DNA from: an uncultured Eubacteriales bacterium
GTDB taxonomy: Bacteria; Bacillota; Clostridia; Oscillospirales; Oscillospiraceae
DNA: 31,273 nucleotides
Direction of reading: 5' to 3'
Assembly: GCA_900320765.1 (NCBI GenBank)
Contig: ONTN01000001.1
Span: 1 to 31,273 of the forward strand
A program made the translations under genes and the position numbers. Of this stretch, positions 5,407 to 31,273 are shown piece by piece (position 1 is the stretch's first letter; every line of letters begins with the position of its first letter). Under the pieces are notes generated by a model. The model saw only the letters and a program-made list of their open reading frames with translations, did no database searches and had not been told where the DNA came from.

Positions 5407-6757
5407 TGGCAACGACAAAGCTATGGCACATCAAGGGCCGACTGAAAGACCTCCTGGCCTATGTGGAGAACCCGGAAAAGGCCATGGCGGAGAAGCCGGA
5501 CCTCCAGCCTCTGTGGGACGTGCTCTCCTACGTGCAGCGTCCCGCCGCCACCAAACAGGGCGAATATGTCACCGCTGTCAACTGCCTCAAAGAAATCGCC
5601 CTTCAGCAGATGATCCAGACCAAGAAACGCTTCGGCAAGGAGGATAAGTATATCGCCTGGCACGGGTATCAGAGCTTCAAGCCCGGCGAGGTGACGCCGG
5701 AGCTCTGCCATGAGATCGGGGTGAGGCTGGCAAAGGAGATGTGGGGTGACCGCTTCCAGATCATCGTGACCACACACCTGGATAAGGGCCACCTGCACAA
5801 CCACTTCTGTTTCAATTCCGTGTCCTTCCGGGACGGTGGCAAATACAACTACTCCAAGGCGGAGCAGCAGCGGCTGCGGGAGCGCTCCGACAGCCTGTGC
5901 CGGGAATACAGCCTCTCGGTGATAAAGAATCCGCATAAGGCTCCGTCCCGACAGGTCTGGCTGGATGAAAAGGCCGGGAAGCCAACCCGCTACAATGTCT
6001 ACCGGGAGGACATACACGAGGCGATCATCTACAGCAGAAATCCTCGACTCATGGAAGCATACCTCCGGCGCAAGGGATATATCACCGACTTCACCGGGAA
6101 GCACTGGAAGGTGCGCCTGCCGCAGTATGAGCACTTCACCCGGCTGGACACGCTGGATGAGCGGTGGACGCCGCAGGAGATCTCCCGATATATGGGTGGT
6201 GCAGCCTCCTTCGGGAGCAGACCCGCACGGATCGATTATCCGAGGCAGATGCCGCAGGAGCTGCACGACTGGTTCAAGCCCTTTGTGCGGACGAGCCATA
6301 TCTACCGGCAGTATCTCCACTACTGTTATCTGCTGGGAATTCTGCCCAGGAATACGGATTACAAACCCACCAGTCCGTATCTAAAGGAGGATCTGAAAAA
6401 GCTGGACACCTTCACCGAGCAGGTGCGGTATATGGGTAAATACCGCATTGAGACGCTGGCGGACCTGTATGCCGACAGGAAGCAGCTTATAACGGAATTG
6501 GCGATGCTGACCGATCGGCGGCGAAAACTGCAAAACAAGATCCGCAGAGCGACGCCGGAGGCAAAGATCACCCTGCGGAAGGAAAAAGCCGATGTTACCG
6601 CCCGGATCACCGAGCTGCGGAAACGGCTGAAGTTGAACGAGGGGATCGAGGAGCGATCCCTCCAAATGAAAGAAAAGACCGATCTGCTCTATGCCAACGA
6701 ATACCGGGCCCAAGAGGAGCAACAGAGAAAGAAATACGGAAGGGAGCGTGACGCAAG

Positions 6758-6761
<4 letters not shown>
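5406..6761 (+). CDS. Relaxase/mobilization nuclease (MOBP family)
   Basis: MATTKLWHIKG...YVENPEK N-terminus, AWHGYQSFKPGEVTPELCHEIG, His-triad motif THLDKGHLHNHF and a coiled-coil C-terminus. The true start is the ATG at 5406, coupled to the mobC stop. Confidence 0.92.
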
Positions 6762-8790
<2,029 letters not shown>

Positions 8791-8831
8791 ATACCACATC
8801 AAATAGTATTCAATTCAGATACAAGAGCCGC

Positions 8832-8865
8832 CTTGGGGCACCTTCCTTACGGAGGGTGCCCCAAG
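8832..8865. repeat. Strong GC-rich hairpin
   Basis: CTTGGGGCACC / GGTGCCCCAAG perfect arms, an inner TTCC/GGAG pairing and a TTAC loop. Confidence 0.75.
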
Positions 8866-8889
8866 TGGGTCAGCTTTTTTGGTGCTCCA

Positions 8890-8978
8890 GCTGGGACTCC
8901 TCGCCTGCGGGCGAGCCGGGGCGCGGCTCTGACGTGCCACCGGCACGTCATTCACTCCCGCGCCCTTCGAGTCCCAGC
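8890..8978. other. Four-stem palindromic element closed by an inverted copy of the tRNA T-arm (possible ncRNA or miniature repeat element)
   Basis: Closing stem GCTGGGACTC (8890-8899) / GAGTCCCAGC (8969-8978). Internal stems: CTCGCC/GGCGAG, GGGCGCGG/CCGCGCCC and TGACGTGCC/GGCACGTCA with an ACC loop. Confidence 0.6.
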
Positions 8979-8989
8979 GTCTAAGGTGT

Positions 8990-9025
8990 AAAAAAGCTGA
9001 CCCACTTTTGTGGGTCAGCTTTTTT
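8990..9025 (-). terminator. Intrinsic (bidirectional) terminator of the tRNA operon
   Basis: Perfect 16-bp inverted repeat AAAAAAGCTGACCCAC-tttt-GTGGGTCAGCTTTTTT immediately after the tRNA-Lys CCA. Confidence 0.85.
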
Positions 9026-9100
9026 GGTGCTCCAGCTGGGACTCGAACCCAGGACACCCGCCTTAAAAGGGCGGTGCTCTACCTGCTGAGCTACTGGGGC
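9025..9100 (-). tRNA. tRNA-Lys (anticodon UUU)
   Basis: Cloverleaf on the minus strand: anticodon arm CCGCC-CTTTTAA-GGCGG, T arm CTGGG-TTCGAGT-CCCAG, encoded CCA. There is one C3:A70 acceptor mismatch. Confidence 0.93.
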
Positions 9101-9103
9101 TTA

Positions 9104-26309: not shown

Positions 26310-27956
26310 TTATCCTTGTTCTTCAAAGAGCTCCGTGCCCTTAAATCTTACAAGATGGAACGTATATTTGCCCTCGCCGCCGGGGAGAACGTAGCTCAGT
26401 GCCCCGTCGCCGTTGTTCGCCTGATTGAGAGTCAGAAGCTGCTCTCCGTCAAGCTGAACGTAAGACGCAAGATAGTCGCCGAGATTGACCGTCATCCAGT
26501 CCGGAAGGATCTCAAAAACGCTCTCGTCGTCAGCCCAGCCGCGCTCAGTTATGCAGAGAAGGTCGGGCGCCTCGTTCTCGTCGGCATTCAGCCGGTCGTA
26601 ATCGAGGACGAGGGGTATAACAGCGTCCTCGGTGATTATCTCCATCGTTCTGTAGTCGACGAATCTGACTGCGGCCAGCGCCTCGCCGGTCTCATCGTCG
26701 CAGAGCGCCCACATTCCGTCCTCAAGGAAGGAGACAAGCTCGCGCTCATTCGTGGGATAAGCGCCTATCCCCTCTCCCGCAAGGTCGTGGCCGGTCACGT
26801 AAGCCGGGGCGTCCGCGGGGATATGGAGAGCTCCGCTCTCGCCGAACCAGTATTCTCCGGCAAAAGCGCCGCAGGCGGCGAAGACGCGCAGAGTGGGATA
26901 CCAGGGGTTATTCACCAGAATGGCGACGCTCTCGCCCTTATTCAGCACCCCGGAGGTAAGGTTCTTATTCGGAAGATTGAAGCCGTAGACCGTGGCGAGG
27001 AAATATTCGGTGCTGTTTTCCCATTCGGCTCTGTCAAATCTGTAGACGACTCCGTCCTCCTCGGCGGTGAGAATTGCCCAGCAGATGCCGGACGGCTCCT
27101 CGGAGTCCAAAAACTCCGTCTCGTAGATATCGACGGGCAGGGCGGCCTCTGCCTCCTCCCTCGTTTGGGCGAACGTGATATTGAGAAGGGTCATCGGCGC
27201 GGGCTCTTCGGCGGGCAGATTGGATATATAGCGCCACTCGCCGTTTCTGATGACTGCCGTCATAACATACGGTTTCTCAGCAAAGTGATGCTCGATATCG
27301 TAGCCCTGATAGTAGAGCGTATATGTATCGCCGGAGACGTACCCATCGGTAAATTCGACAGGGAAAAGATTCGTATCTCCGTGCTGGAAAAGGTAGATTC
27401 CGCTGTCATAGTTGCAGTACCAGCTAAGCTTATTCCTCGCGTACTCATATGGCACTCCGGTCTTCTGAAGCACGAACTTCTGAAGGGCGTTTTCGGCAAT
27501 GGCCGTAACGTCGGTGTATATCTCTCCCTCGTACATCTCGAAGAACGAAAGCACGTCCTCCGGCACCTCTGGAAGGGCTATGCCGGCTCCGTTGTACATA
27601 ACCTCGTCCCAGTCGATCTCCTCCGGGCGGTCGTAGGTGCAGACGAAGAAGCCGCCTTCCGAATAATCCAAGCTCTCGTTGAGGCTCTTTAGCTCCTCGG
27701 CCGTGAGCTGTCTTGCCTCGGCGGGCGCCGGCAGGGGCTCAGGCTCGGGTTCCGGCTCGGGGGTGGGCTCAGGCTCGGGCTCCGGTTCCGGCTCGGGGAT
27801 AGGCTCCGGTTCTGGCTCGGGGTCCTTTGTCGGCTTTGTATCCTTGTCGGTTTTAGGTTCCGGCTCGGGATCTGAGGACTTCACCTCGGCGGCGCAGGCA
27901 GCGAGGCTCAGCACCATTAAAGCCGCAAGAAGAAGCGCCAAAAATCTCTTTTTCAT
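26310..27956 (-). CDS. Uncharacterised acidic lipoprotein with a Pro-Glu repeat linker
   Basis: Signal peptide with lipobox SLAAC, a (PE)n linker and an acidic body. RBS AAAGGAG. Confidence 0.85.
27735..27822 (-). repeat. Degenerate hexanucleotide coding repeat (Pro-Glu)n
   Basis: Encodes [29 protein letters not shown] with varied synonymous codons. Confidence 0.8.
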
Positions 27957-28039
27957 AATCGGCTCCTTTCAGGCTTTTTATATACATAAAATAGCACATT
28001 ACCCGCCTTTTTGCAAGCGGATAGTATGCCTTATATGAG

Positions 28040-28067
28040 AAAAGAGCCCGCGATCGCGGGCTCTTTT
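28040..28067. terminator. Bidirectional intrinsic terminator after the SLH gene
   Basis: AAAAGAGCCCGCG-at-CGCGGGCTCTTTT. Confidence 0.85.
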
Positions 28068-28074
28068 GAACGTA

Positions 28075-30784
28075 TTATTTAAGCTCAGTCCAGGTCTCGG
28101 CTTCTCCGTCTTTCTCAAAACCGTGGCCGTTTGCGGCTTCCATAATGCCGTAGTAGTTCCAATGGCTCGTCTCCACGTCGCCGAAGCTTCTCAGTTCGGC
28201 TGCGTGGCCGTCTATAAACGCCTTGTCAGGCGTTCTGTCCAGCACTCTGTTCAGCACGGCGGCGACTTCCGTCCTCTTTATTTTTTCCTCCGGCTTGAAG
28301 CTGCCGTCGGGGTATCCGTCGATCCATCCTAACGTGTATGCCTTTGCTATATCGGCGTATGCCCAGCTATCCTTGGCAACGTCGGTAAAGCTTACCTCCC
28401 CTTCCTCCGCGTCAAAGAATCTCGTGCAGATAGAGACGAACTCGGCTCTTGAAATTTTTTCTTCCGGGCGGAAGCTTCCGTCGGGATAGCCCTTTATTAT
28501 GCCGTGAGACGCAAGAGTCGTAACAGCGTCGTAGTACCACCTGCCCTCTTCGACGTCAGAGAGGGCTATCTCCGTCTTGCCCGGCATCTTATTCTTCAGT
28601 AGATTATATATCACCTGTGCCGCCTCGGCTCTTGTGAGCGCGTCAAGAGGCCTGAAGCTGCCCTTATACCCCTTGAGGTATGCGATGTGCTCATCGCGGA
28701 TAAGCTCCGGACGTACTTGAGATGCTGGCGGATCAGTCTTCTGAGGTGCCGGAGGCTCTGACGTCCAAACTGCCGTGTAAACAGCATCCTCAGTCACGGT
28801 CTCGCTGAGTTCAGGCGTCCAGCCCGCAAATACGGCTCCGCTCTTCGTTGGATCTTCAATATGGGGCGTTTCAGAGCCGAGAGCGCATTTTATCTCAGCA
28901 AGCACAGTGTCACCATCCGTATAGGTTACGGTTCTGCACTCTCTGACGATATAGCAGGTATCTCCGTCGTACTCGGGTATGATATTATCTATCTCAACGG
29001 CTATATACCCATCGGCGACGAATTCGCTCGGGTCGAAGCTAAAGGTGCCGCCCTTTACGACGCATTCGTTCTCCTCGTGAGCGGAAAGTCCCTCTCCGTT
29101 CTCTCCGGCATAGGTCAGGACCGGGTTTCCGGAGATAACGACCTTTGCCGGTATTCTTCTTCCGTTATCGTAGGACGGATACTGTGCGGAGATAAGAGCT
29201 CCGCTGCCCTCGAACACTATTCTGCCCTCGCCCGTTATCTCAAGTTCGCCCTCATGTACAAGGAAGGGACCCTCATTAATATTCCAGGGTGGAGCGGAGG
29301 TCTTGAGCTCCTGACCGCCGAGGTCGAGGAATATTTTTCTGCCCTCAAGCCAAAGCGACCACGTCGTTCTGCCCTCATAACCCTTGAGGAGCCTTACGGT
29401 ATTTCCCGCCTTGATGCTGTAAAAAACGCTGCCCAGCTCGGAATACTCGCTATTGCTTCTGAATTTGAAGCCCGTCTCAACTTCCTCCGCAAAGAAGTCT
29501 CTGTCGTCGCCGTAAAAATAGAGCTGGTCGCTGGAGTACATCTCCTTCGGCTCTATGTCAAAGCTGCCCCAGACAACGCCGTCTGACTCCTCGAGGTCAA
29601 GGACTATGCCCTCTCTCCAGCCGCCGAAATGGGTATAGAGCAAGAACGCGTTATCAGTAACGGATTCCACCATTCCCTCCGGGAGCTTGACTCTGCCGCT
29701 CATGGGCATCTTAAGGTGCGTTTCGGTATGGCTCTGCCTTCCATTATTAAGCTCCGCGCCGTTTACATAGGCGGTAGAGCTCTCATTAACGGAAAGGTTT
29801 ATAACGAATTCTCTGTTTGTCGCGTAGTCATCGTATCTATAGTAGCTGCCGCTCTCTTCGACTCTGTAATAAACGTCTATATAGATCACAGCCTCAGCCG
29901 GGGCGTTCCCGTTCTCCGTGTCGACAAGCTTGTCATCGACTACGGCGTATCTGCCGCTTGCCATTACAGCAAGAGTGGAAAGGTTTCTGATCTCCATGTA
30001 CCCATTGCCGGAAGTATAAGCGTCCATGCCGATGGCTTCGAGGTCAGACTTGTTCATTTCAAAGTAGCTTTGAGTGCTGTTATCGTAAACTGTATCAAGG
30101 ACCCGGAATTCCTCCCTAAGCCCCTCGATGTCCTTGAGCTCAAGGACAGGATAGAAGGTTATGTGTTCGCTGGGAACACTGCGTGCAGCTGAATCGCTTG
30201 GGAAATGCTCGGCAAAGATACACCGATAATAATACTCTTCCTTCGTCATAGTAAGGAGGAGTAAAGCGCTCCATATACTTCTCAGCGCTCCAGCCCTTAA
30301 ACTCGAAGATATCCTCATTCGGATTCCCCTCCGGAGCAGTAATGCCGCTTCCGGATCTCTCCGCTTCAAATGAAGTATAGGTAGACGTGGGGTATCCGTT
30401 TTCCATTATGTACCGCACGAACTCGACTTTTAGCTTATCGAGCCGGCAAACCCCGTAAAGCACGGTCTCCCCGTCCGGGAAGTCGTCGGCATTTATTGTA
30501 TCGCCCTCGTAATACTCGGGCGTTTTTGCACCGCGCTCGGTGCTCCAGCCAATGAACGTATAGTCATTGTTATAGTAATAATAAGGTCCGTCTGTCGGAA
30601 CGCCCGGAAGAGTCGCAGTCTCTCCGCTCTTCAGATAGATAGTCGGAAAACTGCCGTGATAGGCCTCCACATCCTGAAAGCGGATGATCTTTTCCGCGTC
30701 GCTCTCGTCCGCAGCCGCAGCGCCCAAAGGCAGGATACCGACGCAGAGCACAATCGCAAGAGCAAGAGCTATAATTTTTCTCAT
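28075..30784 (-). pseudogene. SLH-domain cell-surface protein (signal peptide, InlB-B/Listeria-Bacteroides-like repeats, 3 SLH domains), frameshifted by a ~70-bp insertion
   Basis: The N-terminal part starts at 30784 (RBS AAGGGGG; MRKIIALALAIVLCVG...AAAA) in one frame. The C-terminal part (...FAGWTPE...YTAVW, GYPDGSFRPEEKISRAEF, GYPDGSFKPEEKIKRTEV) is in another frame. Removing 30171-30240 gives one 879-aa ORF. Confidence 0.85.
30171..30240 (-). other. Inserted fragment encoding an asparagine synthetase B-like C-terminal peptide
   Basis: Translates as (TK)EEYYYRCIFAEHFPSDSAARSVP(SE), closely resembling the AsnB C-terminal motif KEEYYYRSIFxEHFPSxSAAxSVP as recalled. Its excision restores the host frame. 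Confidence 0.7.
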
Positions 30785-30903
30785 AATAAATCCCCCTTGT
30801 GTTTCTATTCTGAATATATCATGGTTTTGTTGCTTCGGCACTTACTTTTTCTCCTTTTTTATACTAATACAATAACACAATTACGCCCGTGTTGCCAGAA
30901 CGA

Positions 30904-30935
30904 TTAAGGCGCGAAGCCATTGCTTCGCGCCTTAA
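30904..30935 (-). terminator. Hairpin terminator after the last ORF
   Basis: TTAAGGCGCGAAGC-catt-GCTTCGCGCCTTAA, 13 bp past the stop. Confidence 0.7.
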
Positions 30936-30948
30936 CTCTTTGTTTTGT

Positions 30949-31273
30949 TTACTGCTTCTCGTAGACGTACTTGTAGGTCCACATATCCTCGGGATCGCCG
31001 TTGAAAATCTCAAGCTCGCCATCCTTGAGGGTGCCGGTGTACTCGATTTTGATGCCGAGGAAGGTCTCGGTCATGGTGAAATCTTCACCGTCGAGCGTCC
31101 AGGTTACGTTAAGCTCGAGGTCATCGCGCTTATGTACGCCCTTGCCGTTTGCCTTGAAGGTGAAAGAGACCTCCACGAGATCCTCTGCGTTTGCCGTCTG
31201 TTCGAACGAGGTCATAAGGCCCTGATAATAGACGCCCTTGTACTTGTTTGCAACGACGGACATGCCGGCGCCG
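30949..31273 (-). CDS. C-terminal part of a hypothetical (probably envelope) beta-rich protein containing a phage tail-tube-like segment; probably 5'-truncated by the window edge
   Basis: The frame is open to the window end (GAGMSVV...) and no RBS is visible before ATG 31263. The C-terminal NVTWTLDGEDFTMTETFLGIKIEYTGTLKDGEL resembles clostridial beta-barrel lipoprotein domains. Confidence 0.65.
   Translation of the reverse strand, partial: GAGMSVVANKYKGVYYQGLMTSFEQTANAEDLVEVSFTFKANGKGVHKRDDLELNVTWTLDGEDFTMTETFLGIKIEYTGTLKDGELEIFNGDPEDMWTYKYVYEKQ

Follow-up and report, generated by a model that had tools for sequence, protein, structure and literature searches.

Two kinds of described system come close to a bacterial gene that carries a short piece of another organism's coding sequence. 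In SPDIR, a form of short-patch illegitimate recombination, a mutation arises in genomic DNA when a short heterologous patch replaces native sequence, with microhomology found at both crossovers. Such events have been demonstrated in Acinetobacter baylyi, where they occurred under selection at ~1e-13 to 1e-10 per locus, with patches of 3 to ~100 bp and documented extragenomic donors (bioRxiv 10.1101/2023.11.22.568220). The second kind comprises inter-genome chimeras and scaffold misjoins from short-read metagenome assembly of the IDBA-UD type. The locus described here shares with SPDIR a short, heterologous and extragenomic patch (65 for 52 nt), a long microhomology at one end and the lack of mobile-element hallmarks, whereas it differs in showing no microhomology at the second crossover, in being known from a deposited sequence alone and in its setting, as SPDIR is known from laboratory Acinetobacter baylyi and not from wild rumen bacteria. 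The resemblance to assembly chimeras extends to a foreign piece that is identical to a contig of a co-resident organism, to junctions that are located at contig ends or coverage holes and are not reproduced by other assemblers, to one junction placed at a 21-mer common to both partners, in line with k = 20-21, and to a scaffold containing N-runs of estimated size. Unlike in such chimeras, the junction to the foreign asparagine synthetase (asnB) piece shares 13 nt, which is less than any k and would require a chimeric read or an overlap-free merge. On balance, we consider the patch to be quite probably an artefact of building the scaffolds of a metagenome-assembled genome (MAG), in which a contig corresponding to a small host island and carrying foreign tips was joined to its neighbor without an overlap check.

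The window, which is the whole stretch of 31,273 nt that was analysed, constitutes contig C82 of a 1.6-Mb MAG consisting of 201 contigs with a completeness of 89%. Its source is likely the sequencing run ERR2027893, because contigs of this run are 100% identical to the flanks of the window. Near its end, the window contains a surface-protein gene on the minus strand that is split into two open reading frames, located at 30140-30841 for the N-terminal and at 28075-30369 for the C-terminal part. The region is organized as follows:

28075-30165, minus strand: C-terminal part of the surface-protein gene, 696 codons and stop, native sequence
30165/30166, no strand: blunt junction with zero bases in common, where the host contig ends in two assemblies made independently of each other from the same run
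30166-30230, minus strand: asnB-only piece of 65 nt that is not host gene, in place of 52 native nt
30231-30243, minus strand: 13-nt word AAGGAAGAGTATT present both in the host gene and in the donor asnB, the homology-driven N-terminal junction
30231-30841, minus strand: N-terminal part of the surface-protein gene with a GTG at 30841 and an ATG (MRKII) at 30784, native sequence
30231-31157, no strand: host island of 927 nt, identical to contig L030, where the sequence is native past both ends while it is foreign in the window
31137-31157, minus strand: 21-nt word TCAAGGCAAACGGCAAGGGCG found in a host lipoprotein gene as well as in a phage major-tail gene, the second chimeric junction
31158-31248, minus strand: fragment of a phage major-tail gene at the contig end, replacing the 5' part of a native 130-aa lipoprotein gene
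31249-31273, minus strand: last 25 nt of the contig, matching neither host nor phage contigs

The C-terminal part encodes three SLH domains and a Flg_new (Listeria-Bacteroides) repeat as identified by Pfam. Over 28075-30165, it shows 0 mismatches to two contigs from the same run (L026 and L027) and 97% identity to the intact orthologue P0122. An alignment to an intact orthologue with 97% nucleotide identity (L010) reveals that 65 nt stand in for 52 nt, which amounts to a substitution with a net gain of 13 nt and thus shifts the frame of the gene. The C-terminal frame between the two open reading frames reads TKEEYYYRCIFAEHFPSDSAARSVPSE, while the 52 displaced nucleotides, which are present in every orthologue covering the site, encode (R)VFTFDELMEIRESQETWKS. 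Across the site the native protein, with a length of 898 aa from MRKII or 917 aa from the upstream GTG, reads PPYYDEGRVFTFDELMEIRESQETWKSHITF, and the intact orthologues P0122 (898 aa, 97% identical) and P0123 (897 aa, 78%) both read PPYYDEGRVFTFDELMEIRESQETWKSHITFYPVL. The original prediction, made from the window's letters, had proposed that an asnB fragment of 70 or 76 nt was inserted into a gene for an SLH surface protein. Foreign letters and a frameshift are indeed present, but the change is a substitution. Since none of the orthologues carries the piece and all contain a different, native segment of 20 codons, the term insertion describes the wrong anatomy. Similarly, the proposed removal of 70 bp does restore the frame, but the resulting 879-aa protein does not correspond to the native gene.

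The two borders of the patch differ in character. On the N-terminal side, AAGGAAGAGTATT is the sole word of at least 9 nt that donor and host have in common within ~300 nt, and a random blunt joint would show 13 matching bases with a probability of ~1.5e-8. On the other side, host and donor share no base at 30165/30166. The microhomology that had been claimed for both borders thus holds at 30231-30243 and not at 30165/30166, and the flanking CGAA repeat that had been part of this claim turned out to be incidental. Neither inverted nor direct repeats nor a target-site duplication were found around 30166-30230, confirming the initial reading with respect to terminal inverted repeats. The insertion of a transposon or MITE was rejected for lack of terminal inverted repeats and of a target-site duplication, and the piece itself derives from the coding sequence of asnB.

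The segment 30166-30230 is a Prevotella-type asnB fragment and foreign to this genome. The proposed relationship of its peptide to the C-terminus of Bacteroidales-type AsnB is borne out at the level of protein and nucleotide sequence. In a search of solved structures, the four best matches are all asparagine synthetases aligned at the equivalent C-terminal position, with residues 491-516 in case of E. coli AsnB. A region-restricted protein search with 40 residues returned 3924 proteins with a best E-value of 2e-8. All 120 proteins listed out of these 3924 contain asparagine-synthase Pfam domains and span ~467-595 aa, most of them 554 aa; peptide identity among the listed proteins is 93-100% and the named matches belong to Prevotella sp. 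tc2-28 and Bacteroidales. The 26 codons of the piece are identical to residues ~500-525 of AsnB proteins of 554 aa (P0002, P0003, P0016 and P0119). Compared to these enzymes of Prevotella and Bacteroidales, the piece encompasses only 65-78 nt without catalytic domain, start or stop and is not a gene.

At the nucleotide level, the asnB of a Bacteroidaceae MAG from roe-deer rumen (L020) matches 71 of 72 nt over 30166-30237, and a separate asnB contig of 202 nt assembled from ERR2027893 at a depth of 3.4 matches 30166-30243 in 78 of 78 positions with 0 mismatches. The flanks of the latter translate to ERFPINPPQN and ASVACSTAIA and are thus asnB on both sides. The exact donor 72-mer was not found in GTDB species genomes. 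A search with a degenerate pattern identified 15 loci, 14 of which are labelled as MAGs or isolates of rumen or Prevotella/Bacteroidales origin, with the loci other than L020 matching 50-60 of the 72 nt. The asnB that belongs to the genome itself, located on contig C172, differs at the C-terminus (TKESLLYRELFEKYYPGQ), which identifies the piece as foreign to this genome, and no second copy of the piece is found in the MAG, an absence that at 89% completeness is not absolute. On these two grounds, an intragenomic donor was ruled out.

Three other assemblies of ERR2027893, reached by exact protein look-ups, all lack the patch; two of them break at 30165, while one is intact. The ENA scaffold STEW18-1_SAMEA104153965 scaffold_7322 (L026) starts exactly at 30165 with the sequence CACATAACC, and the Logan contig L027 contains the two letters GC, corresponding to the native continuation, followed by CACATAACC from 30165. 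The third, contig k127_536033 of ENA ERZ930536 (L048, 58 kb), harbors both the intact 917-aa gene and the intact 130-aa lipoprotein gene and, over 28001-31273, differs from the window only at 30252, in the asnB piece and in the last 116 nt. On the opposite side of the patch, the Logan contig L030 (1111 nt) equals 30231-31157 of the window and then continues with native sequence both ways, for 24 nt on the patch side and for 160 nt in the lipoprotein gene. The junctions are located where contigs end in assemblies made independently from the same reads (30165, 30165+2 and the island contig L030), and the asnB piece is identical to a contig of another organism in the sample. Among Logan contigs of ERR2027893 (X1) over 29700-30700, none crosses either asnB junction, where it has to be considered that Logan contigs drop rare variants. 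The host is thinly covered in this run, with a word depth of ~6, and no other foreign block was detected over the 11 kb of the window that were compared.

The asnB piece is not the only foreign sequence next to the island. Foreign sequence bounds the 927-nt island on both sides, in each case over less than the length of a 150-nt read. At the contig end, the last 116 nt (31158-31273) are unlike the native 130-aa lipoprotein gene of L010, L030 and L048. The phage piece matches phrog_238 (E = 5e-10) and P0188 (PF06199), latter at 100% identity, and 112 nt (31137-31248, including the shared 21-mer) are identical in six phage contigs, which stem from further runs and samples, belonging either to the same Stewart study or to a related one. 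This donor came from the protein search, while DNA searches of IMG/VR and INPHARED returned nothing. At the lipoprotein end, the native stub measures 160 nt, as against 116 nt for the phage tip that was kept. The original prediction had offered an assembly chimera as its alternative, and this alternative is favored by the absence of the piece from any orthologue or same-run assembly, by the blunt junction at a contig end and by the second tip.

Several features of the deposited genome are informative with respect to how such a patch might have been generated. The MAG looks like a set of IDBA-UD scaffolds: it contains 13 N-runs of 5-101 nt each, and its contig ends overlap each other by 19, 59 and 99 nt, corresponding to k-1 for k = 20, 60 and 100. 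In the study behind ERR2027893 (PRJEB21624), single samples were assembled with idba_ud --pre_correction (PMC5830445). The 100% identity of the flanks, together with the N-runs, the overlaps of k-1 and these methods, leads us to infer that the MAG is an IDBA-UD assembly of ERR2027893. At one N-run, the flanking sequences truly overlap by 9 nt, which suggests that the scaffolder positions contigs by estimated distance and leaves overlaps unchecked, and at C183 the size of the gap is misjudged by ~16 nt. In the path-assembly code of IDBA, a non-positive gap estimate would lead to a merge without overlap check.

A scaffold join could have proceeded in the following way. Thin coverage would have caused the assembly to break on both sides of the ~1-kb island, whose contig would then have gained foreign tips of less than one 150-nt read at both ends: a piece of Prevotella asnB via the 13-nt word and a piece of the phage tail gene via the 21-nt word. 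True host mate pairs would have allowed the scaffolder to set the island beside the main contig, and with a gap estimate of zero or below, both contigs would have been butted against each other without overlap check and with the asnB tip trimmed. The 13-nt junction itself was probably provided by one or few chimeric reads with a single switch that were accepted by a permissive assembler. A join of this kind accounts for the collinear return of the piece to the same gene, for the fact that one junction is blunt and located on a contig end, and for the replacement of 52 by 65 nt, since the error of 13 nt is within the noise of insert sizes. Against this reading stands the 13-nt overlap, which is below any assembler k and thus requires a physical chimeric read or an unnamed algorithmic step. 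Moreover, the clipping of tips by length does not predict that the phage tip would be kept over the longer native stub. Two other artefacts were rejected: a plain de Bruijn chimera at the asnB junctions, where only 13 and 0 nt are shared, and a switch in base calling within a polyclonal cluster, which would have kept the register, whereas here 65 nt replace 52 nt.

A scan of other samples did not recover the patch. In a search of the run index, the locus is present in many rumen runs. In three of these (X2, X3 and X4), one Logan contig each spans the site with the native 52 nt, and contigs L040, L041 and L045 equally contain native sequence at the site of the patch. In the cluster of proteins at 90% identity, the native peptide is present in all members whose sequence was read at this position; P0200, a product of 660 aa and the only member from a contig of 31273 nt, is presumably the window's own deposited gene call. 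Of 6 words sampled from 30138-30260, at most 4 were present in any indexed run, a number that would be expected from asnB alone if the two missing words span the junctions. Both junctions are absent from JGI metagenome contigs in two scans, exact look-ups of the broken products of 214, 233 and 724 aa found no match, and the cluster look-up of the 764-aa reading frame retrieved no independent record of the junctions.

The strongest competitor of the scaffold join is a genuine microindel of the SPDIR kind that would have been present in a minority of cells in the rumen of that cow, with a permissive assembler taking the minority path. Single-stranded DNA from asnB of a co-resident Prevotella would have annealed with its 3' end at the 13-nt microhomology, converting 52 into 65 nt and knocking out the gene. 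Much of the anatomy would be in line with such an event. In the deposited sequence, the patch replaces native sequence and its size is in the range reported for SPDIR, which includes extragenomic donors; the 13-nt microhomology is far beyond chance, and a donor with 78/78 identity is contained in the same sample. Standard de Bruijn steps would generate neither a 13-nt nor a blunt junction without a read, and one of the assemblies stops exactly at the junction, as would be the case at a branch point. Conversely, the second junction at 30165/30166 lacks microhomology, and the Logan contigs of the same run do not branch at either junction but run on into native sequence, by 2 and 24 nt, so that at most one read could support the patch. 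In searches covering assemblies and indexed words, the three other assemblies of the same run show no such mutation in genomic DNA, the 58-kb contig obtained from the same reads is intact, and none of the other samples contains the patch. Finally, a clearly chimeric second tip at a distance of 927 nt in the same low-coverage island would have to be a coincidence. Taken together, we regard this event as unlikely. The initial proposal of a microhomology-mediated capture that switches off a surface antigen is less well supported than the assembly reading, the piece being missing from the orthologues and from the other assemblies of the run.

It is also conceivable that a single chimeric molecule containing both junctions was formed in vitro during preparation of the library, by template switching in PCR or by ligation in the TruSeq procedure, and was adopted at the coverage hole. 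Amplified libraries commonly contain chimeras that arise from a single switch at a microhomology, the length of the piece is below that of one read, and the junction words are missing from the indexed runs. Such a molecule would have required a return to the gene it had left, at a point 52 nt further downstream and without any 3' homology, which is extremely unlikely in a metagenome, whereas the scaffold join results in collinearity without a second switch, and we thus consider this scenario very improbable. A fixed and genuine pseudogenizing insertion in the chromosome of this strain, the primary reading of the original prediction, for which only the deposited sequence itself is the evidence, is scarcely credible, as host contigs from the same run with 100% identical flanks are native at both borders and one of them spans the intact gene.

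If the patch originates from a scaffold join, its consequences concern data quality. Two foreign snippets in the last 1.1 kb of this contig in the genome of the species produce a spurious pseudogene and a spurious fusion gene, and scaffolds of this kind would mislead scans for horizontal transfer, for pseudogenes and for the capture of gene fragments. The organism almost certainly has an intact surface protein of 898/917 aa, and the patch is therefore most likely without biological importance. With reads in support of both junctions, the locus would instead represent a rare natural case in which DNA of another phylum was incorporated through short-patch illegitimate recombination. If due to SPDIR, it would be a very recent natural case between phyla, involving a Firmicute-type SLH gene and a Prevotella donor, of a process that has so far been described mainly in laboratory Acinetobacter.

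Local variation was observed in the intact 58-kb contig L048, where four changes (A>C, T>A, T>G and G>T) are all transversions. A diversity-generating retroelement was rejected as their cause, since the changes are not adenine-specific, and the four transversions look more like the product of error-laden reads at low depth.

The end of the contig (window 31137-31273) is a chimera of phage and host sequence. Within this segment, 112 nt are identical to the major-tail gene of a rumen phage (record P0188, PF06199) and are followed by the terminal 25 nt of the contig, which correspond to neither host nor phage sequence, with a 21-mer common to the phage gene and a host lipoprotein gene serving as joining point. 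In its native form, the 130-aa lipoprotein gene is intact in the orthologous locus L010 and in two contigs of run ERR2027893, L030 and L048.

At the site where the asnB piece interrupts the surface-protein gene of the window, L048 (ERZ930536 k127_536033) is intact and carries a cluster of four base changes within about 40 nt (A>C, T>A, T>G and G>T, all of them transversions), resulting in the sequence PPSYDEGREVTFDELIEIR:

Equivalent to window 30213-30252, transversion cluster of L048 at the patch site

No such transversions were found elsewhere over the 3 kb compared. The cluster looks like the product of a coverage hole that was bridged by error-laden reads, and it may alternatively represent a real minor allele.

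The metagenome-assembled genome itself (G000) consists of scaffolds containing N-runs of estimated length, at C183 1704-1710 and 12 other places. Since both flanks of the 7-N run at C183 1704-1710 carry AGAACAGTA, the contigs truly overlap at this position despite the Ns placed between them. The genome contains its own asparagine synthetase genes:

C172:1-1071, asparagine synthetase gene, truncated by the start of the contig
C96:1868-2656, asparagine synthetase gene

The C-terminus encoded on C172 is clearly unlike the inserted asnB piece.

In the linker preceding the SLH domains of the surface protein, a block of about 50 nt (window 28557-28606) reads NLLKNKMPGKTEIALSDV, whereas most orthologues contain NLLADKTPGEKDASFSDV. 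Contigs of the same run share this variant, as do P0192 and P0199 among other records, so that the block is genuinely allelic. Compared to the contigs L040 and L041, the 548-aa protein encoded next to it shows variation in the length and sequence of its Pro-Glu repeat (window 27755-27836).

Between the GAPDH and DUF4428 genes, many related contigs contain a group of three genes (HTH_26, DUF6036 and DUF5780):

About 6138-9103, three-gene block in L038, L039, L042-L044, L046 and L047

They are absent from this interval in the window, L040, L041 and L045, and the block is a small variable island within the species.
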